The notes under the pieces are model-generated. The model saw nothing but the letters and a program-made list of their open reading frames with translations. It searched no databases and had not been told where the DNA came from. From Nanobdellota archaeon (GTDB lineage Archaea; Nanobdellota; Nanobdellia; Pacearchaeales; GW2011-AR1), in contig JAKADZ010000001.1 of NCBI GenBank assembly GCA_021818475.1, positions 72,562-136,561 of the forward strand: a DNA stretch of 64,000 bases. Reading direction: 5' to 3'. Position numbers and translations under genes: made by a program. How positions within the stretch are numbered: the stretch's first letter is position 1; each line of letters begins with the position of its first letter. Positions 1,585-53,251 of the stretch are shown here, one piece after another.

Positions 1585-4161
1585 TCACTCTTTTATTCCT
1601 TTCAAATGAAGTTCGTGCATTCTTTTCAAGAATGCCTGTTTGTCTTCTATCTTTATCATGTCAGAATGCCCCTGCATTATAATTCCCAATGCAAACGGAC
1701 TTGGAAGTTCAGTATCCCTGATTTTTATCTTAACTCTTCCTTCTTTTATCCACTGCAGAACTAATTTCGCATTTTCAATATCCATTAAATCTTCAAGAAC
1801 TTCTCTTCTCGCTTCCCTTAAAATAGGAAATTCAGATGAGATTTTCTTAACTGCTGCAAGAACAAAATGAGATTTCATATTCTGTTTTCCTACTGATTTT
1901 TTCATTCCTCTGTAAGTTTTTAGAATCATCATAGACCTTGTCGCGCAATGTCTGAATCTCCTCGCCAAAACATCAGTTCTCTCAACAGCTTCTTTCAAAA
2001 CTTCCTCAAGATTTTCAGGTTTCAGAAAATTCATAACTTTCTCAATGTTCATTTTTTCTCCTGCGATGTAAAAACTGCTGTCATTAATTCCCATCTCAAC
2101 ATCTCTTCCTCCTGCCCTGCCAAGCAAAAATCCGATTGCTCTGGATAAAACATCGTTGACTCTTCTTCCATACATGCTGTGAAAAATCAGATAATTCTTT
2201 TCTGAATTGTATCTCTCAACCAATAAATTGCCTGAATGAGGAATCTCAAGATAATTATGCTGTTCATAAAAATAATTGTAAATTGAATCTGCTGTTGAAT
2301 TATCAACATAAAGATGTTCTTTTATCAGTTCGATTATCTCTGATTTTTTAACCTTATTTTTGAATCGGTCATTCATCAATGTTCTGAATTTATTAATTTC
2401 AATTGCAGAATCAAAACTAAGCGGAAGCATTTCGCTAAACCATGAAGGAATAGTCGGCGAGCGGTCAACAGCAGGCCTTACATAAACATTCATCCCCCTA
2501 GTGTAAAGATAAATATATTTCTTTCCTCCCAAAACAAAAACATCTCCTTTCTTCATTCTTTCCAAAAATCCCTCGTCAATTGCCCCAATAGGTTCATTGC
2601 TTGGAGACATTTTTACTGTGATAAAAGATTCTTCGGGGATTGTTCCGATATTTGTAAGGTAAAGAACCCTCGCCATTTTGCCTTTCTTGCCTATCTGTTT
2701 GGTTTTTTGGTCATACCATATTTTTGCATAAATATTATTTTTCTCAAGCGCATAATCCCCAGCAAGATAACTTATCACGTCATAAAAATCATTTCTTGTA
2801 AGATTTGAATAGCAATAGCTTTTTTTTACCAAAGAAAATAATTCCTCTGCATCCCATATTTTGTAAATAGACATTCCGAATATCTGCTGACTAAGAACAT
2901 CAAGGCAATTTTTCGGAAAATAAATTCTGTTTATCTTTTTTTCAATCATCTCTTTCTGGATTATACTGCATTCAACTAAATCATCCCTGTCCAGAATTAT
3001 GAATCTTCCCTTTGCTATCTCGTGAAGTTTATGCCCCGCCCTTCCCAATCTTTGCAAAGCTCTTGCACTTGATTTCGGACTTCCAAGCATTATGACCAAA
3101 TCAATAAATCCAATATCAATTCCCAGTTCCAAACTGGTTGAGCATACAACTACTTTCAGTTTTCCGTCTCTCAATTTTTCTTCAATCTCAAATCTATGCT
3201 CTTTGCTTAATGAAGAATGATGAGCTGCAATATTATCGTCGCCGTATTCGGTTGGAAATTTTTCTTTGAGATGATTGACTACCCTTTCTGTAGCTGAACG
3301 CGTATTTGTAAAAATCAAAGTTGTCTTATGTTCTTTTATCATAGAATCAATTAAATCGTACACACTGGTTCCGCCAAGGTCTCCACTGATTAAATCCCCG
3401 ACACCTATAACTTTTGTGTCAAGTTTTTTATCAAGTTTTACATTAGCAATTAAAACCTCCCTGTCATCAGATATCCCGACTAAATATTTTGCAACTTCTT
3501 CAAGAGGAGCAATTGTTGCGCTCAGTCCGATTTTAACCGGCCATACCTGGCTTACTTCATTAAGCCTTTCTAAAGTTAAACTCAGATAAACTCCCCTCTT
3601 ATTGTCTAAAGCGTGAATCTCGTCGACAATGCAAAATTCAGTCATTCTTAAATAATCAATAAATTTTTTTGTTGTTAATAAGATTGCAAGAGATTCGGGA
3701 GTTGTAACAAGAATGTGAGGGGATTTTCTTGCCATCTGATTTCTTTCTGCAACAGTTGTATCTCCAGTTCTGAGCCCGACTCTTATTTTCTGAAGTTTAA
3801 TCCCTTTTGCTTCTGCAAGTTTGTAAATATCCTCGAGAGGCTCAATTAAATTTTTGTGAATATCATTGCTCAATGCTTTTAATGGAGAAGTGTAAACCGC
3901 ATAAATGTGATCATCAAGCTGATTTTTTTCTGCAAGCATGACTAAATAATTAATAATTGCAAGAAATGCGGTAAGAGTCTTGCTGCTTCCTGTTGGCGCA
4001 GATATCAAAATATTTCTTCTTTCCCAGACATTCATTACTCCGTATTTTTGAGTGATTGAGAAATTTTTAAATTTTGAAAAGAACCATTCTCTGACGAGCG
4101 GATGCAGAATTCCAATTATTTCTTTGTCTTCTCTTGGCTCAGTTTCAAATATTTGTGTCAT
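1585..4161 (-). CDS. lhr: Lhr-type superfamily 2 ATP-dependent DNA helicase
   Basis: 858 aa. Helicase motifs APTGSSKT (I), DEIH (II), SAT (III) and QRLGRAGH (VI). The long C-terminal region is typical of Lhr-core proteins. Confidence 0.9.
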   Translation of the reverse strand: MTQIFETEPREDKEIIGILHPLVREWFFSKFKNFSITQKYGVMNVWERRNILISAPTGSSKTLTAFLAIINYLVMLAEKNQLDDHIYAVYTSPLKALSNDIHKNLIEPLEDIYKLAEAKGIKLQKIRVGLRTGDTTVAERNQMARKSPHILVTTPESLAILLTTKKFIDYLRMTEFCIVDEIHALDNKRGVYLSLTLERLNEVSQVWPVKIGLSATIAPLEEVAKYLVGISDDREVLIANVKLDKKLDTKVIGVGDLISGDLGGTSVYDLIDSMIKEHKTTLIFTNTRSATERVVNHLKEKFPTEYGDDNIAAHHSSLSKEHRFEIEEKLRDGKLKVVVCSTSLELGIDIGFIDLVIMLGSPKSSARALQRLGRAGHKLHEIAKGRFIILDRDDLVECSIIQKEMIEKKINRIYFPKNCLDVLSQQIFGMSIYKIWDAEELFSLVKKSYCYSNLTRNDFYDVISYLAGDYALEKNNIYAKIWYDQKTKQIGKKGKMARVLYLTNIGTIPEESFITVKMSPSNEPIGAIDEGFLERMKKGDVFVLGGKKYIYLYTRGMNVYVRPAVDRSPTIPSWFSEMLPLSFDSAIEINKFRTLMNDRFKNKVKKSEIIELIKEHLYVDNSTADSIYNYFYEQHNYLEIPHSGNLLVERYNSEKNYLIFHSMYGRRVNDVLSRAIGFLLGRAGGRDVEMGINDSSFYIAGEKMNIEKVMNFLKPENLEEVLKEAVERTDVLARRFRHCATRSMMILKTYRGMKKSVGKQNMKSHFVLAAVKKISSEFPILREARREVLEDLMDIENAKLVLQWIKEGRVKIKIRDTELPSPFALGIIMQGHSDMIKIEDKQAFLKRMHELHLKGIKE

Positions 4162-4210: not shown

Positions 4211-4624
4211 ATGTTTCATATGAATAAAAAGACATACGAGATTAATCCTTACTTTAATCATAATAATTATAACATATTCTTTACAAATCTTGCTAACCCT
4301 CTTAAGATAGGAATAATACTTTCCTTAAGGATGAAAGAAAAAAATGTCAGCGAATTAGTCAAAGACTTAGGCGTTGAGCAAAGCAAACTTTCTCATGCAT
4401 TAAAATCTTTGAAAAGCTGTAATATTGTAAATATGAAACAAAATGGAAAAGAAAGAATTTATTCTTTAAACAGGGATACAATTCTTCCAATGTTAAGCCT
4501 TATCGACAAACATGCTAATATTCATTGTAAATGTTCATCCTGCATGAAAGGATGTGATATCAGCCATGAGCACAAATTCAGTGGGAAATTCGAGCGGAAG
4601 AAACCGGAGGTGTCGTCGCAATGA
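4211..4624 (+). CDS. ArsR/SmtB-family winged-helix transcriptional regulator with Cys/His-rich tail
   Basis: wHTH segment NVSELVKDLGVEQSKLSHALKSLKSCNIVNMKQNGKERIYSL and a metal-ligand-like tail HCKCSSCMKGCDISHEH. The start may be the ATG at 4220 (leaderless). The last ~17 codons come from repeat module 4571-4620. The stop overlaps the nifS ATG. Confidence 0.8.
   Translation: MFHMNKKTYEINPYFNHNNYNIFFTNLANPLKIGIILSLRMKEKNVSELVKDLGVEQSKLSHALKSLKSCNIVNMKQNGKERIYSLNRDTILPMLSLIDKHANIHCKCSSCMKGCDISHEHKFSGKFERKKPEVSSQ
4571..4620 (+). repeat. short form of the dispersed module (5' motif ACAAATTCAGTGGGAA + 3' motif AAGAAACCGGAGGTGTCGTCGCA)
   Basis: Near-identical ends to 27326-27375, and to the two ends of the long copies at 8167-8265 and 47524-47632. 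Contains GGAGGTG 9 nt upstream of the nifS ATG. Confidence 0.6.
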
Positions 4625-8169: not shown

Positions 8170-8445
8170 CCCACTATTAAAGGGAAGGTCAGGCCGAGCA
8201 TTTGCACGAATGCAGAAAATATCAATCGCAATGAGTGCGGGTGCGAGTTTAAGAAACCGGAGGCGAGCGATTTCGCGAGTGCCGGAAATTTAGTTTTCTT
8301 TTACACGTTAGCTTTTCTTTCTGCATTTCTATGCAGAATGGGCGGGATTCCACTCGCACTTTTTCTAAAAGAAAAACCACGCAATGAGCGAGGTCGGGAG
8401 GTGTTGTCGCAGAAACTAGTTTCACCAAAGGGATATTAAAGATTT
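8167..8445. repeat. mosaic GC-enriched intergenic repeat (long module, copy 1)
   Basis: Positions 8174-8260 match 47531-47617 almost base for base (GGGAAGGTCAGGCCGAGCATTTGCACGAATGCAGAAAATATCAAT..AATGAGTGCGGGTGCGAG). Also present are GATTTCGCGAGTGCCGGAAAT (compare 47432-, 53083-), CAATGAGCGAGGTCG (compare 53116-) and a second GGAGGTGTTGTCGCA end. Confidence 0.7.
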
Positions 8446-22345: not shown

Positions 22346-22353
22346 TTTATAAA
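22346..22353 (+). promoter_or_regulatory. TATA box positioned for the first (fragmentary) tRNA-Lys 5' copy
   Basis: TTTATAAA lies 24 nt upstream of 22378. There is no comparable box in front of the intact tRNA at 22540. Confidence 0.45.
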
Positions 22354-22377
22354 TTAAATTTTTCTACATTTAATAAA

Positions 22378-22539
22378 GGCTCCGTAGCTCACTGGGTTTC
22401 TTTAAAAAAGAAACTACAATGGTAGAAATGCTTAAAACGCATTCATTCGCTACTTCGCCAAAAGAAAAGGCTCCGTAGCTCAGCCTGGTTAAACTCAAAA
22501 CAGGAAGTTTTGGTAAGAACCATTCAGCTACATTACAAT
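22378..22539 (+). repeat. two extra 5' fragments of tRNA-Lys separated by filler containing a degenerate CGAATG hairpin module
   Basis: GGCTCCGTAGCTCA at 22378 and GGCTCCGTAGCTCAGCCTGGTTA at 22469 are identical to the first 14 and 23 nt of the intact tRNA at 22540. The upstream flank motif CTACAT..A.AAT is also duplicated. The module TCATTCGCTACTTCGCCAAAAGA lies at 22443-22465. Confidence 0.7.
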
Positions 22540-22614
22540 GGCTCCGTAGCTCAGCCTGGTTAGAGCACTGGACTTTTAATCCAGGTGTCGGGGGTTCAAA
22601 TCCCCTCGGGGCCA
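22540..22614 (+). tRNA. tRNA-Lys (anticodon TTT)
   Basis: Hand-folded cloverleaf: acceptor GGCTCCG/CGGGGCC (one G-U), D stem GCTC/GAGC, anticodon stem CTGGA/TCCAG, loop CTTTTAA, T arm GGGGG-TTCAAAT-CCCCT. CCA is not encoded. Confidence 0.9.
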
Positions 22615-22625
22615 TGAAGGATTGA

Positions 22626-23471
22626 ATGGACTCGAGTGAGAAATTTCCTATTTCGACCTCGGGACCACATAAAAAATATAAAATGATAATTGAATTTTTA
22701 TTAACAATATTAATCGTAGGAATAGTTACTTCAGGATTAAATATAAAATTCGACAGGTTTTTTGCAATATTATTATTGATTTTTCTTTTTGGATTTACAA
22801 TTTTTGATGCGGTTAATATTTTCCTCTGGATTATTATGTTGGGTTCATTAATGATTTTGATTAAGAATAAAGAGAAAATTTCTGAACTTCCAAAAAATAT
22901 GAAAATAAGACTGTTTGTTTTGGTTCCATTTTTAACGTTGCTGGCTTCGCTTTTAGGGAGTTATATGTTTAGTGTATCACCTCAATCTGTCTTGATGACA
23001 GTTTTGGGTATTCTGGCCGCATTGTACGGGTTAAGATTAATCTTTATACATTTCAAAGAGCAGGAGCTTCAATTTGAAAAGGGGCATCCGAAAATAACAA
23101 AAGGGTGTGGATTTTTTGGGCCTATTGTAAGCGGGTTATCCATTGGATTTATCGGAACATCTCTTAAATCATTGAAAATTCCTTTCGCAATCAAAATAGG
23201 AAAAATGAATTCAAAACAGGTTTATTTAGGTAATGCAATAACTGCCTTTTTTGCATCATCATTCGCAATTATCTTTCATTTTTTACTGAAACCAATCGCC
23301 CCAAATATATTTTACCAGCAGATGTTACTGGGTATGGCACTTTGGACAGGAATGCATTATACCTCAGAACTCACAGACATTTTTTTCAAGAATAAATGGA
23401 AAAAGATTTTTCAAATTTTAATAGGAATTATTTTAATGGTAGTTTCAATTAAAATTTTTATGTCATTTTAA
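22626..23471 (+). CDS. polytopic membrane protein (possibly TauE/SafE-like permease)
   Basis: 281 aa with about 8 hydrophobic helices. The family assignment is only by general resemblance. Confidence 0.65.
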   Translation: MDSSEKFPISTSGPHKKYKMIIEFLLTILIVGIVTSGLNIKFDRFFAILLLIFLFGFTIFDAVNIFLWIIMLGSLMILIKNKEKISELPKNMKIRLFVLVPFLTLLASLLGSYMFSVSPQSVLMTVLGILAALYGLRLIFIHFKEQELQFEKGHPKITKGCGFFGPIVSGLSIGFIGTSLKSLKIPFAIKIGKMNSKQVYLGNAITAFFASSFAIIFHFLLKPIAPNIFYQQMLLGMALWTGMHYTSELTDIFFKNKWKKIFQILIGIILMVVSIKIFMSF

Positions 23472-27325: not shown

Positions 27326-27375
27326 CAACAAATTCAGTGGGAAGTTGATGCACAAGAAACCGGAGGTGTCTTAGC
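27326..27375 (+). repeat. short form of the dispersed module directly upstream of rpoA
   Basis: CAACAAATTCAGTGGGAAGTTGATGCACAAGAAACCGGAGGTGTCTTAGCA matches 4571-4620 at both ends and differs only in the central ~11 nt. GGAGGTG lies 8 nt upstream of the rpoA ATG. Confidence 0.6.
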
Positions 27376-30300
27376 ATGGTAATAGAAACAAAACCAGTCA
27401 AGAAAAGTGTAAGCGAAATAAGATTCGCTCTTCTTAGTCCTGACAACATCAAAAAAATTTCAGTTGCAAAAATAGTAACTCCCGAATTATATAACATTGA
27501 TGGTTATCCTGTCGACGGAGGTTTGATGGATTTAAGACTTGGAGCAATTGATCCAGGTGTAAGATGTAGAACTTGCGGAGGAAGATTAAAAGAATGTCTT
27601 GGCCATCCAGGCAGTATTGACCTTGCTCGTCCGGTGATTCACCTAAAATATGTTCCATTGATTGAATTAGGACTAAGATGTTTCTGTAAAGAATGCGGAA
27701 AATTATTGCTTTCTGACAAGGATTTGGAAAAATATTCAATGAGCGAGAGAGCAAAGAAAGCAAAAGATGCAAAGAAATGCCCTCATTGCGGTGCTGTTCA
27801 TGAAAAAATAAAACTTGATAAGCCGACAAGTTTCTTCGTCGGAAAAACAAGGCTTTTCCCAACTGAAATAAGAGAGATGCTTGTAAATATTCCAAATGAA
27901 GAACTGAAGAAGATAGGAATAAATACGACTACATGCCGTCCTGAATGGGCAATCCTTACAATGCTACTTGTTCCACCTGTAACAATTCGTCCTTCAATTA
28001 TTTTAGAATCAGGAGAAAGAAGTGAAGATGATTTGACTCACAAACTTTCAGACATAATCAGAGCAAATCAGAGACTTTGGGAAAACCTTAATGCAGGAGC
28101 TCCTGAAGTTATTATAGAAGACCTATGGGATTTATTGCAGTTCCACGTAACAACATTCTTTGATAACAGCGTCGCTAAAATTCCTCCTGCAAGACATAGA
28201 AGCGGACAGCCATTAAAAACAATAATGGAAAGAATCAAAGGTAAAGAAGGAAGAATAAGAAAGAATCTCGCAGGTAAAAGAGTAAACTATTCTGCAAGAA
28301 CAGTTATTTCTCCAGATCCGCAGATAGCAATAAATGAAGTCGGAATTCCTTTTGAAATTGCAAAAGTAGTAACTGTTGCAGAAGGAGTTACTGATTTAAA
28401 TATTGAAAAATTAAAGAAATTAATTCAAAAGGCAGATGAATATCCGGGAGCAAATTATATTATAAGACCCGACGGAAAAAGAAAAAAGATTACTGCTGAT
28501 TTGAAAGAAGAAATAATTAATGAAATAACACCCGGCTACAAAGTTGAAAGACATCTGCAGGACGGGGATGTTGTATTGTTTAACCGTCATCCTTCTCTTC
28601 ACAGAGGAAGTTTGATGGCCCACTTCGTTCGTGTATTGCCCGGAAGAACTTTCCGACTTCACCCCGCAGTTGCTGCGCCATACAACGCTGACTTCGACGG
28701 AGATGAAATGAATATTCACTCACCGCAGACAGAAGAAGCAAGAGCAGAAGCGAAGATTCTTTTGGATGTAAAAAGAAATTTATTCTCTCCAAAAAATAAC
28801 ACCAACTTAATCGGATGTATTGGAGATGCCATAACTGGAAATTACCTATTAGGAACAGAAGAATTTTCAAGAGATTATGCAAATCAGATTTTGTTCAAAT
28901 CTGAAATTAACAAGCAAATAACAAAGAAAACTGTAAGTGGGGCAGAAATTTTCTCAGCAATACTTCCAAAAATAAATTTCTCAAACGACTACATTCAGAT
29001 AAAAGATGGCGAGGTTACAAAAGGAATAATCAACAAAACATTATTCGGAAGTGAAGATGGGGAATTGATAAAAGAACTTGAAAAACAAATTGGAATAAAT
29101 GAAACATTTGAAATAATAAAGAAAGCGTTCACTCTCGGAATAAAATATTTATCAGACAAGGGAATCACAATCTCATTAGAAGATTTAGATCTTGATCAGA
29201 GTGTTATTGACGCGGGTGAAGAAGTAATTAAGAAAGCAGAAAAGAAAACAGAAGAAATAATTGAACAGTATAAGAAAGGAGAACTTGAGAGAATTCCGGG
29301 AAAGACCGACGAGGAATCAAGAGAAATAAGAATTCTTCAGACATTAAATGAAGTAAGAACAAAGATCGGGGAAATCGTCAAGGAGAAATTCCCTAAAGAT
29401 AATCCTGTTAATGATATGATTCAGTCAGGAGGCGGAGGAAATATACTGAATATTACTCAGATGGCTTCTTGCGTCGGACAGCAGGCTTTATGGGGCAGAA
29501 GAATTGATATTGGTTATGACAAAAGAACATTATCTTTCTTCCACAAAGGAGATCTATCTCCTCATTCAAGAGGATTTATAAGAAGTTCATTCATTAAAGG
29601 ACTTCGCCCTGATGAATTTTTCTTCGGAGCAGTTACAGGAAGAGACTCACTCATGGATACAGCATTAAGAACTCCAAAATCAGGATATTTATACAGAAGA
29701 CTTGCAAATGCACTGCAGGATTTGAGAGTGGAATATGACGGAACAGTAAGAGACAGCAACAATAATATAATACAGTATAAATATGGCGACGACGGAGTTG
29801 ATGTTTCAAAACTTCATATGAATGAACAGGTTGCTCCAGGAGAATCAATAGGAATCGTTACTGCACAGTCTTTCGGGGAACCATCAACACAAATGGCTCT
29901 TAACGTATTCCACTTCGCAGGAGTTCAGGAAATGCAGGTCACCAGCGGTCTTCCAAGATTAATTGAAATTTTCGACGCAAGAAAAAAACCTTCTTCACCA
30001 AAGATGGATATTTACTTGAAGAAAGAATATAACAACGAGAAAGATGCAAAAGTTTTCGCTGAAAAAATAAAAGAAGTAACATTAAAAGAAATTGCCTCAG
30101 AAATCAATTTGAATTTTAGTGATAAAACAATAACTATTGTAATAGATAAAGAAGGACTGAAACAAACACACAGTTCAATCAAAACAGTGGTAGAAAAATT
30201 GAATGACCTGGGATTCAGAGCAAAGGAAAAAGAAGATTCAATTTTGTTAAATGCGTCTGAATTTTCATTCAAAGAAATTTATCAGCTTAAAGAAAAATTA

Positions 30301-41656: not shown

Positions 41657-41695
41657 AAATATATTATAACCTCTTTTTCACAAATCAGGAGAAGG

Positions 41696-41859
41696 CTCTC
41701 AAAGGGAAAACATATTAAAGAAAATTTTAGGTGTTCTCATCAGCCTTGAGCAGTCTCTTAAAGGGAAAACATATTAAAGAAAACCGATTAGGTGTTCTCA
41801 TCAGCCTTGAGCAGTCTCTTAAAGGGAAAACATATTAAAGAAAACCGATTAGGTGTTCT
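41696..41859 (+). repeat. tandem repeat, about 2.7 copies of a 59-61-nt unit
   Basis: The unit is CTCTTAAAGGGAAAACATATTAAAGAAAACCGATTAGGTGTTCTCATCAGCCTTGAGCAGT, with copies starting at 41696, 41755 and 41816. Copies 2 and 3 are identical over their shared length, and copy 1 differs in the AAATTTTAGG segment. Confidence 0.9.
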
Positions 41860-44600: not shown

Positions 44601-45419
44601 ATGATTATGACAAAATCAGATTCGAACATTAATTTTGGCCCTTCGGGCCTCGGTCCTGTTAAAGATGCAATTTCAAATCTTGAAATGTATCATCAGCTCG
44701 GATTAAAAGCATGTGAAGTGGCTTTCACTTATGGTATATACATTAAGGAAAAAGAAGATGCAATAAAGATAGGAAAAAAAGCAGAAGAGCTCGGAATAAA
44801 ATTAAGTATTCATGCCCCTTACTGGATTAACTTAAATTCTAAAGAGAAAAAGAAAGTCGAAGAAAGCAAAAAAAGAATTTTAGACTGCTGCAAAATTGGA
44901 ACATTAATGAAAGCTTATCGGGTTGTATTTCACACAGGATTTTATTCCGGGATGGATAAGGAAGAAGCTTATGAAAATATTAAAAAAAGAATTTTGGAAA
45001 TCCAGGAAGGAATGAAAAAAGAAAAATACACTCCAAAATTAGCTCCGGAAATAATGGGAAAAGTAAATGTTTTTGGAAGTGTGGAAGAAATTTCGAGACT
45101 TTCAAAAGAAACCGGCTGCTCTTTCTGCATAGATTTCGCACACATTCTTGCAAGGTACAAAAGTTATCGCATAAAAGAGACACTTAGTGAATTTAAAGAA
45201 GCAAAAGAATTGCACATTCATTTTTCCGGAATTGAATATGGAGAAAAGGGAGAAAAAAACCATAAGAAAACCCCTGAAAAAGACCTGAAAACTCTCATAT
45301 CTGAACTGCCAAAAAATAAAGATATTGTAATCATAAATGAATCACCTTATCCGGTAGAAGATTCTGTTCTTGGATTAGCAATAAGCAGGCGTGACCACAC
45401 TCTTAAAGGGAAAACATAA
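44601..45419 (+). CDS. nfo: AP endonuclease family 2 / endonuclease IV-like TIM-barrel protein
   Basis: SIHAPYWINLNS, VVFHTG and FCIDFAHI match the metal-ligand blocks of endonuclease IV-like enzymes. The last ~6 codons (HTLKGKT*) lie within repeat copy 45400-45447. Confidence 0.65.
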   Translation: MIMTKSDSNINFGPSGLGPVKDAISNLEMYHQLGLKACEVAFTYGIYIKEKEDAIKIGKKAEELGIKLSIHAPYWINLNSKEKKKVEESKKRILDCCKIGTLMKAYRVVFHTGFYSGMDKEEAYENIKKRILEIQEGMKKEKYTPKLAPEIMGKVNVFGSVEEISRLSKETGCSFCIDFAHILARYKSYRIKETLSEFKEAKELHIHFSGIEYGEKGEKNHKKTPEKDLKTLISELPKNKDIVIINESPYPVEDSVLGLAISRRDHTLKGKT

Positions 45420-45447
45420 TAAAGAAAACCGGTTAGATGTTCTTTAC
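45400..45447 (+). repeat. solo copy of the 41696-type unit
   Basis: CTCTTAAAGGGAAAACATAATAAAGAAAACCGGTTAGATGTTCTTTA matches the first ~45 nt of the tandem unit, including the terminal GTTCTTTA seen in the last tandem copy. Confidence 0.65.
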
Positions 45448-47307: not shown

Positions 47308-47632
47308 CTTTTTTTTCTTTATCGCCCTTTTTTGAAATATAATAATTAATCAATTTTATCTAAAACCCGCATTAAAAATTTTCCCCATTAATAATTTTCA
47401 TCGGAAATTTTTCCTCAACGAAAGTGAGTGATTTCGCGAATGCCAGAAATATTAAATGCAATGAGCTGGGTCGCGAATTAGGAAAAATTTCATTTATCTC
47501 AAAAAATTCTTATCAGGCATGACCACAAATTTAGTGGGAAGGTCAGGCCGAGCATTTGCACGAATGCAGAAAATATCAATGGTAATGAGTGCGGGTGCGA
47601 GTTAACGAAACCGGAAGTGTCGTCGCATTTTT
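47308..47632 (+). repeat. composite GC-enriched intergenic repeat (module B followed by long module A, copy 2)
   Basis: Positions 47308-47515 align with 52975-53195 (for example GATTTCGCGAATGCCAGAAATATTAAATGCAATGAGCTGGGTCGCGAAT versus ...CCAAAAATATTAAATGCAATGAGCGAGGTCGCAAAT). Positions 47524-47632 align with 8167-8265. The repeat fills the whole spacer between ORF 46877..47293 and smc. Confidence 0.7.
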
Positions 47633-52447: not shown

Positions 52448-52455
52448 CTATAAAA
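52448..52455 (+). promoter_or_regulatory. TATA-like box for the tRNA pair
   Basis: CTATAAAA lies 24 nt upstream of the tRNA-iMet 5' end (52480). Confidence 0.45.
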
Positions 52456-52479: not shown

Positions 52480-52597
52480 AGCGGGGTGGAGCAGCCTGGA
52501 GTGCTCGTCGGGCCCATAAGCAAATCCGTAGGTTTGTATTCCTACGCTGTCGCATAGGAAACCCGAAGGTCGTGTGGTTCAAATCCCACCCCCGCTA
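52480..52597 (+). tRNA. initiator tRNA-Met (anticodon CAT) with ~42-nt intron at the canonical 37/38 position
   Basis: Acceptor AGCGGGG/CCCCGCT (A1:U72) and anticodon stem TCGGG/CCCGA (three G-C pairs 29-31:39-41) are initiator hallmarks. The loop is CCCATA, followed by the intron at ~52519-52560, which contains its own hairpin CGTAGG/CCTACG. The T arm has one extra nucleotide (GTGTGG versus CCCAC). Confidence 0.85.
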
Positions 52598-52617: not shown

Positions 52618-52688
52618 CCCCTCATAGCATAGTGGTAATGCAGTCGGCTGTAGACCGGCGTATCCAAGTTCGATTCTTGGTGAGGGGA
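52618..52688 (+). tRNA. tRNA-Tyr (anticodon GTA)
   Basis: Acceptor CCCCTCA/TGAGGGG with the archaeal/eukaryal C1:G72 identity pair, D stem GCAT/ATGC, anticodon stem GTCGG/CCGGC, loop CTGTAGA, T arm CCAAG-TTCGATT-CTTGG, discriminator A. Confidence 0.92.
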
Positions 52689-52960
52689 TATAATTCGGTT
52701 AAGCGAAGCGAAATCGAATTCATTAAAGAATCGAACGTAGTTTCATTTGGCTCGAAGAGACGAATGAGAGGGAACGAGCGAAGCGAAGTGAACTCCGATT
52801 CTTGGTGAGGGGACTTTTATATTCCGCAAATAGAAAATAATTCCCTGTTGGGCGGGCGAGAGTTTTCGCGATGGTAAGGTCAGTGTTAAGTGGGCGGGGG
52901 CTCGAGCTGGTGAGGGGACTTTATTATTTCACGAATAGAAAAATAATTCCGTTCTGTGCA
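52689..52960 (+). repeat. two inserts, each followed by a repeated tRNA-Tyr 3' end plus original downstream flank
   Basis: CGATTCTTGGTGAGGGGA at 52796-52813 is identical to the tRNA 3' end, and TGGTGAGGGGA recurs at 52908-52918. Both are followed by a similar ~45-nt flank (CTTT.AT.ATT.C.CG.AAATAGAAAA.TAATTCC). Insert 1 (52689-52794) carries the core TCATTTGGCTCGAAGAGACGAATGA (52743-52767) and an inverted copy of the T-arm (AAGAATCGAAC). Insert 2 (52851-52907) is GC-rich. Confidence 0.75.
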
Positions 52961-52974
52961 GGAGAGAATTTTAA

Positions 52975-53251
52975 CTTTTTTCTTTATCACCTCTTTTTGA
53001 AAGGTGTTTATAAATTTTAATAACCTTCGGAGATTTACTCCTTTAACAACTTTTATCGGAAATTTTTTCTTTCCGAAGGTGAACGATTTCGCGAATGCCA
53101 AAAATATTAAATGCAATGAGCGAGGTCGCAAATCAGAAAAAATTTTATTTATCTTAAAAATTTCTGAAAGAAATTTTTGCATTTTTTTCTATTAGTATGA
53201 GAAGAAATAAATGAGTGAGGTTACGATTTAAGAAAACCGATTAAGTGTTCT
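52975..53251 (+). repeat. composite intergenic repeat (module B copy 2 plus truncated module A 3' end)
   Basis: Aligns with 47308-47515. The following AATGAGTGAGGTTACGATTTAAGAAAACCGATTAAGTGTTCT parallels AATGAGTGCGGGTGCGAGTTTAAGAAACCGGAGG of the long module and the AAGAAAACCGATTAGGTGTTCT of the 41696 tandem unit. Confidence 0.65.

Follow-up and report, generated by a model that had tools for sequence, protein, structure and literature searches.

Fragments of tRNA genes left by integrated elements, transposition of introns in Thermoproteales, and split and permuted tRNAs have been reported in the literature, and both the gain and movement of archaeal tRNA introns and the fragmentation of tRNA genes are long-standing open questions. 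No report was found in the literature of small intron-related elements at the edges of the D-loop or T-loop accompanied by duplication of a tRNA end. Here, a tRNA-Lys(UUU) locus is described from a 64,000-nt stretch of a Nanobdellota archaeon (assembly GCA_021818475.1, contig JAKADZ010000001.1, positions 72,562–136,561; this whole stretch is called the window), in which the 5′ end of the tRNA occurs three times. We consider this triple 5′ end to be probably (a probability of about 0.6) a trace of mobile elements that are small, non-coding and akin to the introns of archaeal tRNA genes. Each insertion would have copied the part of the tRNA between +1 and the point of entry, with an intact tRNA regenerated downstream and a fragment left at the old promoter, and the target would be set by a short stretch near the 3′ end of the element that is complementary to the exon just upstream of the insertion site.

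The 14-mer GGCTCCGTAGCTCA starts at 22378, 22469 and 22540 and was found at no other site of the window, even with 2 mismatches allowed, and none of 100 dinucleotide shuffles contained three matches. An earlier note, made from the letters of this DNA, had described these three copies with 14, 23 and 75 nt of identity to tRNA-Lys, in this order, and this was reproduced. As the note had also stated, only the last copy is a complete tRNA-Lys(UUU) (22540–22614; ARAGORN call; Rfam RF00005, 71 bits), and the only TATA box, TTTATAAA at 22346–22353, precedes the first fragment by 24 nt; within 60 nt of the intact tRNA-Lys, no TATA-like motif was found. The same gap of 24 nt separates the TATA box of the tRNA-iMet gene (52448–52455) from its tRNA (from 52480), in agreement with the equal spacing that had been pointed out. 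A duplication of the upstream flank had been described as well: CTACAT does occur at both 22365 and 22528, but the repeat is short, and relatives duplicate 0–3 nt of the flank. On the 3′ side of the tRNA, a 42-nt insert (22615–22656) is followed by CCTCGGGaCCA (22657–22667), which matches the tRNA-Lys 3′ end at 10 of 11 positions. The 400-nt locus was 100% identical in two independent ENA metagenome contigs, which excludes an assembly artefact. The locus is organized as follows, where L0xx names refer to the loci used for comparison:

22346–22353, plus strand: TATA box TTTATAAA, the ancestral tRNA-Lys promoter, as judged from sequence and from the clade-wide spacing of the motif.
22378–22391, plus strand: copy 1, tRNA nt 1–14, the left duplication of element A and the original tRNA start site, from comparison of empty and filled sites in relatives.
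22392–22453, plus strand: body of element A, 62 nt, with 85–97% identity to copies in other tRNA genes and a predicted fold.
22454–22468, plus strand: tail of element A, TTCGCC (degenerate complement of tRNA nt 6–1) and then AAAAGAAAA; an unpaired linker in the predicted fold.
22469–22491, plus strand: copy 2, tRNA nt 1–23; in full it serves as the left duplication of B, and its nt 1–14 serve as the right duplication of A.
22492–22539, plus strand: element B, 48 nt, with tail ATTACAAT and the same architecture in 13 relatives.
22540–22614, plus strand: intact tRNA-Lys(UUU), CCA not encoded (ARAGORN; Rfam RF00005, 71 bits).
22615–22656, plus strand: 3′-side element D, 42 nt, TGAAGGATTGAATGGACTCGAGTGAGAAATTTCCTATTTCGA, with homologous inserts in L090, L091, L093 and L087.
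22657–22667, plus strand: distal tRNA 3′-end copy CCTCGGGaCCA (10/11), the original position of the tRNA 3′ end, 5′ of a TauE-like gene (probable start 22683).

We conclude that the tRNA-Lys of the window bears three mini-elements: A at 22392–22468 (duplicating nt 1–14), B at 22492–22539 (duplicating nt 1–23) and, on the 3′ side, the older and decayed element D at 22615–22656, with an 11-nt duplication (nt 63–73). The uninterrupted 75-nt tRNA-Lys stands 3′ of the leader inserts, and Rfam searches of the inserts, both at gathering thresholds and at E ≤ 10, revealed no known RNA family, tRNAs alone being matched. The order with A distal and B proximal was also found in L077 and L087 and fits either sequence of insertion. 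The idea that the fragments are exons of split or permuted tRNAs, raised in the earlier note, found no support, since they duplicate the 5′ end of the adjacent intact tRNA, distal copies decay, and Rfam finds nothing else in the region.

A tRNA-Lys gene located 5′ of rpoH-rpoB was present in about 66 of 80 related genomes. About 25 syntenic tRNA-Lys loci carried at least one partial copy of the 5′ end, 58–191 nt upstream, with breakpoints clustered at either border of the D-loop, nt 12–14 or 22–23. At about 15 loci the tRNA 3′ end was repeated 46–256 nt downstream, usually as an 18-nt copy that starts in the T-loop. Filled loci were scattered patchily on the RpoB tree, and no decayed tRNA copies were hidden at loci lacking a detected tRNA. 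The comparison with related genomes that the earlier note had proposed thus gave filled and empty tRNA-Lys sites among close relatives: the difference between L078 and its sisters L025 and L031 was exactly 71 nt, with direct repeats of 23 nt at the borders, and the sequence flanking the L078 distal fragment was orthologous to the one in which the sisters have their normal promoter. This orthology bears out the proposal that two 5′-side insertions regenerated the tRNA 5′ end and that the gene now stands 161 nt from its ancestral promoter. Downstream of tRNA-Lys, L025 and L031 retained the body of a T-loop-type insert while the distal 3′ fragment was gone (a 26-nt deletion compared to L078); thus, a fragment can be lost while the insert stays.

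Promoter positions showed the same pattern. At empty sites, the TATA box (TTTATAAA or TTTTTAAA) ended 21–29 nt (mode 23) before the tRNA +1 in 27 of 39 loci, and from this spacing near-leaderless transcription would be ancestral. At filled sites, the same motif was found 22–30 nt 5′ of the distal fragment in 19 of 25 loci, and no TATA box was located near the full tRNA in 24 of the 25; in the apparent exception, L073, the fragment lies upstream of the promoter. Besides, two loci (L024 and L030) had a promoter 45–47 nt from tRNA-Lys instead of about 23 nt, the gap being filled by a short hairpin (TCTCAATATATTTGAGAT) without a tRNA fragment.

Element A consists of the 62-nt body and its tail, 77 nt in total, inserted after tRNA position 14, just 3′ of GTAGCTCA. 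The body contains, in order, the hairpin GGGTTTCTTT/AAAGAAAC, the mini-hairpin CTAC-AATG-GTAG, the hairpin AATGC-TTAAAAC-GCATT and then CATTC-GCTAC, of which GCTAC is complementary to tRNA nt 7–11. The stretch 22443–22465 had been taken for a degenerate member of a hairpin family; a more fitting description is the conserved 3′ end of insert family A (..GCATTCATTCGCTAC together with the tail), and what stood of the claim is a modular, partial resemblance (z about 6) to the GC..CTTCGC hairpin module of some introns.

A metagenome scan with the conserved 3′ part of this insert gave ten loci, and the family A body was found in five tRNA species: tRNA-Thr(GGU), tRNA-Thr(CGU) (two contigs, one with two inserts), tRNA-Lys(CUU) (two contigs), tRNA-Ala(GGC) (two inserts) and tRNA-Lys(UUU). 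The consensus body is CGGGTTTCTTTAGAAAAGAAACTACnATGGTAGAAATGCTTAAAAYGCATTSATTCGCTAC, and the window copy showed 97% identity to the tRNA-Thr(CGU) copy and 85–92% to the others. In the metagenome loci the promoter precedes the distal copy, and the tails vary in length and are A/C-rich in all members. The body always lies directly 3′ of ..GTAGCTCA (position 14) and is flanked on each side by the host tRNA's own first 14 nt, and the repeated 14-mers differ by target (GCCTGCGTAGCTCA, GCCTCAGTAGCTCA, GACTCCGTAGCTCA and GAGCCTGTAGCTCA). Since the acceptor sequences differ by target and both copies match the target, the duplication must have been produced at insertion, and an attachment site carried by the element cannot explain family A. 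The family A duplications thus resemble target-site duplications and are not carried att sites, which speaks against the classical integrase model for this family. Moreover, the six nt after GCTAC were complementary at 3.1 of 6 positions to the element's own target versus 2.4 of 6 to other targets (permutation p = 0.002); for single inserts, such a short complement to the fragment was weak (p 0.02–0.7), and it was significant solely as target-specific complementarity across family A. The mobile, intron-related families in several tRNA genes, the duplications made at insertion and the 3′ insert had been missed in the earlier note.

Two further arrangements of family A sequence were seen. In L092 (tRNA-Ala), two different bodies are each followed by an identical 15-nt tail (AGTCTCGCAAACAAT) and a 14-nt fragment, which points to an exchange of bodies between copies or to 29 nt having been duplicated when the second element inserted. 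In L024, at 15054–15249 at the end of the locus, a body resembling element A (GGGGTTCTTTAGAAAAGAACCTACAATGGTAGA..) adjoins a sequence of 42 nt that does not derive from a tRNA and has a second copy about 108 nt upstream.

These target-specific repeats bear on the explanation that elements with a tRNA-derived attP recombined into the tRNA gene and that the short inserts are remains after internal deletion. The D-loop and T-loop are typical sublocations of integrases, and the breakpoints lie in them. At L065, in addition, the tRNA-Lys 3′ end is followed by two toxin-antitoxin cassettes, each closing with a tRNA 3′-end copy (13 and 21 nt), as in serial site-specific integration. But the family A body occurs in five tRNAs with the acceptor strand always that of the target, which a carried attP cannot give; across many lineages the inserts keep the same small size and structure, unlike random deletion remnants; and no integrase was found in the window and no viral contig carrying the fragment. 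Integrase scars at the tRNA-Lys 3′ end are real in this clade (L065) but do not fit the target-specific repeats of family A, and we regard them as quite an unlikely origin of the mini-elements. The L065 region itself (2531–3856) contains a ParE-like toxin with an upstream partner, and a ribbon-helix-helix (RHH) protein plus PemK/MazF; its cassettes hold toxin-antitoxin genes only, and it has the appearance of a short array of cassettes with the tRNA as its anchor. Integron attC sites were rejected for it, the cassette ends not being hairpins; nor is a link to tRNA reported in the paper on archaeal integrons.

The relation to introns was found in the insert bodies. The D-loop inserts of L041 and L077 match introns in the anticodon loop of tRNA-Lys in L028 (z = 16), L047, L065 and L072 (z 7–16 overall), the insert of L054 is similar to the intron of L036 (z = 11.6), and that of L019 to the intron of its own gene (z = 8.7). 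In these pairs the bodies correspond and the 3′ ends differ: canonical introns end in AAGAG or AAAAG, which pairs with exon CUUUU of the anticodon loop and forms the central helix of the splice motif, and D-loop inserts end in (GA)GCUAC, which pairs with exon GUAGC(UC). Introns and D-loop inserts alike are inserted two to three nt 3′ of the paired exon stretch. Element A of the window belongs to subtype A1; L007 and L093 join the 5′ half of an intron-like subtype to the 3′ half of the window subtype, and the window element is tied to canonical introns solely via these chimeric copies and the partial match with z = 6.

The homology to real introns is also what would be expected if the promoter-proximal fragment were the real 5′ exon of a leaderless transcript, from which the splicing endonuclease removes everything up to position 14 of the full copy, no RNase P being needed. 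The promoter spacing (mode 23 nt) would agree with this, as it implies near-leaderless tRNA transcription, like that of the RNase P-free Nanoarchaeum equitans (PMC10100707). Likewise, the minimum free energy fold of 22378–22614, and those of 14 of 21 relatives, use the distal fragment for the acceptor and D stems. In insertions at nt 14, hand inspection of the bulge-helix-bulge (BHB) motif showed that the self-complementary AGCU (positions 9–12) followed by CA could form the 4-bp AGCU/AGCU helix and both 3-nt bulges, and inserts of the GAGGGG type allow a flanking helix with CUCCGU. However, no acceptable BHB was seen for element A of the window (CUGGGUUUC start) or at any family B junction, where the outer flanking helices were absent by hand inspection, no dedicated motif search having been run. 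Furthermore, distal copies at several loci carry changes incompatible with a tRNA (A9G in L088, G1A in L029, and G1U plus C6U in L023), which argues against functional 5′ exons, the window has two stacked inserts, and the tRNA-iMet/tRNA-Tyr pair described below requires a 5′-processing enzyme anyway. Splicing of this kind thus seems very improbable.

Element B is inserted after tRNA position 22/23. It has an apical hairpin CAAAAC/GTTTTG (22496–22512), segments AACCA and AGCTAC complementary to the D-loop and to nt 7–12 of the fragment, and then the tail ATTACAAT. This architecture was shared by 13 relatives with different apical stems; no formal covariation test succeeded. Element D holds a degenerate inverted tRNA 3′ end (TGGACTCGAGTGAG; compare the reverse complement of nt 73–61), and its homologues stand 3′ of tRNA-Lys(UUU) and tRNA-Lys(CUU) genes (L090, L091, L093 and L087), where the inverted segment and the distal repeat follow each target's own 3′ end.

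When the leader modules (fragment plus insert) were folded singly, the fragment paired with the 3′ part of the insert in 20 of 20, followed by an unpaired A/C-rich tail of 5–33 nt, and the fold had a z of −2 to −5.6 in 17 of the 20. Single-sequence folds were used, as RNAalifold on a MAFFT alignment of family B was unsuitable, the alignment not being structure-aware. Family B modules were predicted to have one internal hairpin and family A modules two or three, and in L023 and L029 mutations of the fragment were matched in its pairing partner. Stability was equal on both strands, and no asymmetry separates RNA-level from DNA-level structure.

Equal stability on both strands is also found for DNA palindromes, and the inserts might then have arisen with no mobile element at all, by template switching or hairpin-primed repair at tRNA stem-loops that gave direct-inverted-direct copies. 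Family B inserts of L029 and L020 are indeed colinear with the reverse complement of nt 44–1 of their own tRNA, anticodon loop included (AGATTAAAA; z = 7), a degenerate inverted copy of the target occurs in all families (A, p = 0.002; D; the T-loop family), and the fragment with its insert was amplified in tandem in L027, L033 and L043. Such fold-back copying leaves unexplained the 62-nt body conserved at 85–97% across different tRNA genes and the homology to canonical introns, and for most inserts the similarity to an inverted tRNA was no better than in shuffled controls. As a source of whole inserts, an inverted tRNA was rejected by local alignment against shuffles and by an nhmmer profile of the clade tRNA-Lys, neither of which rose above noise apart from L029/L020 and a slight tendency in family B, the one family for which it is retained as a rival. 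We therefore hold self-templated origin to be unlikely.

The mobile elements related to introns, which we prefer, would leave the gene dependent on its old promoter. Since the elements bring no promoter, the ancestral TATA box would drive transcription of tRNA-Lys, giving a precursor whose leader is 161 nt long. The leader lacks any run of at least 5 T, which makes read-through from 22346 plausible. Each leader module would fold to a closed hairpin domain, sequestering the decoy fragment; an unpaired A-rich linker would come next, and an RNase P-type activity would cut at the true +1, after ..CAUUACAAU. Such cleavage of the long leader is plausible because the tRNA-iMet/tRNA-Tyr pair needs some 5′ processing. 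RNase P proteins were reported in all archaeal genomes examined in one review (PMC6380272), and RNase P-free N. equitans has leaderless tRNA genes with fixed promoter placement (PMC10100707).

How the elements might move is suggested by their ends. In families A and B, variable A/C-rich tails of 5–33 nt stand directly before the proximal copy, as in retroposons resembling short interspersed nuclear elements. The inserts could be mobile tRNA introns caught moving, in which an intron-like RNA picks its site through a 3′ guide that pairs with exon sequence, CUUUU of the anticodon loop or GUAGC of the D-arm, and is fixed in DNA by a step that is RNA-templated or defined by transcript ends; we offer this as tentative and rather doubtful. 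Such a step would explain both the duplications ending at the mature tRNA terminus and the A-rich tails.

Several points weigh against mobile elements as the source of the triple 5′ end. Neither the window nor viral contigs yielded a transposase, an integrase, a reverse transcriptase or an autonomous copy. A Pfam scan of the 44 window proteins revealed no integrase, transposase, reverse transcriptase, splicing endonuclease or RNase P subunit, and scans of viral contigs with the tRNA 5′ end and with both halves of element A gave an unrelated phage tRNA-Met or nothing. The empty-site allele of the window species gave 0 hits in metagenomes. Duplication lengths were 11, 14, 18 and 23 nt across the four insert families, not fixed as for a classical transposase, and in all four one edge of the duplication coincides with the mature tRNA end within 0–3 nt. 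A transposase with a fixed stagger would not predict an edge at this position; it may reflect the mechanism, with a step set by transcript or tRNA ends, or selection that keeps insertions which regenerate the gene. Family B has almost no sequence of its own and may have a different route of origin, and its L029/L020 members resemble the tRNA itself in inverted orientation. In L087, the tRNA-Lys(CUU) gene has a family B body of the L078/L027 type after 23 nt, and movement of B between tRNA-Lys(UUU) and tRNA-Lys(CUU) could be gene conversion between paralogues. Finally, we infer the transcription start, the read-through and the RNase P cleavage.

Besides tRNA-Lys, the window contains a two-tRNA unit:

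52480–52597, plus strand: tRNA-iMet(CAU) with a 42-nt intron and a promoter 24 nt upstream, in one unit with tRNA-Tyr.
52618–52918, plus strand: tRNA-Tyr (52618–52688) and its 3′-side inserts, with an inverted T-arm segment AAGAATCGAAC at 52726–52736 and tRNA 3′-end copies at 52796–52813 and 52908–52918.

The tRNA-iMet(CAU) gene has C, not U, at position 33, and both ARAGORN and Rfam miss it. The tRNA-Tyr gene lies 20 nt further 3′ across a hairpin spacer and has no TATA box of its own; some 5′-processing activity must therefore exist. The likeness between the tRNA-Lys insertions and the 3′ side of tRNA-Tyr, which the earlier note had drawn, holds for architecture: the 3′ inserts of the two tRNAs have this alone in common, their sequence similarity not being significant.

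The RpoB protein of the window groups with Pacearchaeota/Woesearchaeota-like DPANN archaea (GTDB Nanoarchaeota). The gene order around the locus is ribonucleotide reductase, dCTP deaminase, DHFR and ThyA (reverse strand), thioredoxin, a 58-aa open reading frame and tRNA-Lys, followed by the TauE-like membrane protein, rpoH, rpoB and rpoA. Elsewhere in the window, an intergenic repeat family of 80–130 nt with 83–93% identity between copies was found at 8177–8420, 47378–47620, 53033–53165, 4572–4620 and 27328–27376. Its modules include GAGCGATTTCGCGAATGC..AAATGCAATGAGCGAGGTCGCGA and GGGAAGGTCAGGCCGAGCATTTGCACGAATGC..GAAACCGGAGGTGTCGTCGCA, one module is also present in the tRNA-Lys 3′ insert of L050, and the copies are unassigned candidates for a small RNA or a miniature inverted-repeat transposable element (MITE). 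At 41668–41848 there are three tandem units of 59–61 nt, two of them identical, with a fourth copy (72% identical) 3.6 kb away at 45372–45432; CTCTTAAAGGGAAAACATATTAAAGAAAACCG is common to all. On the minus strand at 12151–15890, a PemK/MazF toxin and antitoxin adjoin a 543-aa Peptidase_S74 protein (phage tail-fibre chaperone) and a 485-aa protein, and this region may be virus-derived.

The same modules are present in one clade in three states, as anticodon-loop introns, as insertions at the D-loop edge with duplication of the tRNA 5′ end, and as mirror-image 3′ insertions. Filled and empty sites in close relatives, defined elements, a target rule and footprints make the question of intron movement testable. 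If mobile introns have been caught moving, this would be the first mechanistic handle on the spread of archaeal tRNA introns and possibly the first retroposon-like process in archaea. Annotation of these genomes will also commonly meet with tRNA fragments and with long structured leaders. The locus also bears on the need for 5′ leader removal in reduced archaea with promoters placed as in the RNase P-free Nanoarchaeum.

Compared to N. equitans (PMC10100707), the empty sites of this clade likewise have a fixed distance between TATA box and tRNA, with a mode of 23 nt from the TATA end to +1. In contrast to N. equitans, there is a two-tRNA unit, tRNA-iMet/tRNA-Tyr, without an internal promoter, and many tRNA-Lys genes have leaders of 66–191 nt, which implies a 5′-processing activity. 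With integrase att scars the locus shares a direct repeat of the tRNA end that flanks the insert and the regeneration of an intact tRNA. Partial copies of tRNA ends flank inserted DNA also in the fragments left by SSV- and pNOB8-type integrases (Thermococcaceae, PMC9897764; the Caldiarchaeum tRNA-Thr model, PMC4390854), and the cassette insertions of L065 occur at this same tRNA; but the inserts described here are of 42–127 nt, non-coding and often located 5′, between promoter and gene, and their duplications are target-specific, not element-borne, with no associated recombinase gene. Like MITEs and other DNA transposons, the inserts are small and non-autonomous and occur as many similar copies at separate loci, here tRNA genes, each between duplications of its target, which in family A measure 14 nt. 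Unlike those transposons, they have no terminal inverted repeats of their own, the inverted segments inside the inserts all being target-derived, and the duplication length depends on the family (11–23 nt), with one edge always at the tRNA terminus.

Compared to the transposed non-canonical tRNA introns of Thermoproteales, as far as these are described in PMC4390854 (Fujishima et al. 2010), the copies at positions 14 and 23 differ in that they come with a duplicated 5′ part of the tRNA and an intact tRNA after it, and in that no convincing BHB motif is present at the junctions and splicing is not required. Going by the same account, both are short and non-coding and occur as near-identical copies in different tRNA genes, and in both, as in BHB introns, a 3′ segment pairs with the upstream exon. 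Archaeal BHB introns interrupt the mature tRNA, whereas the inserts of this locus do not and are followed by an intact 75-nt tRNA; yet homologous bodies in this clade also sit as ordinary introns in the anticodon loop.

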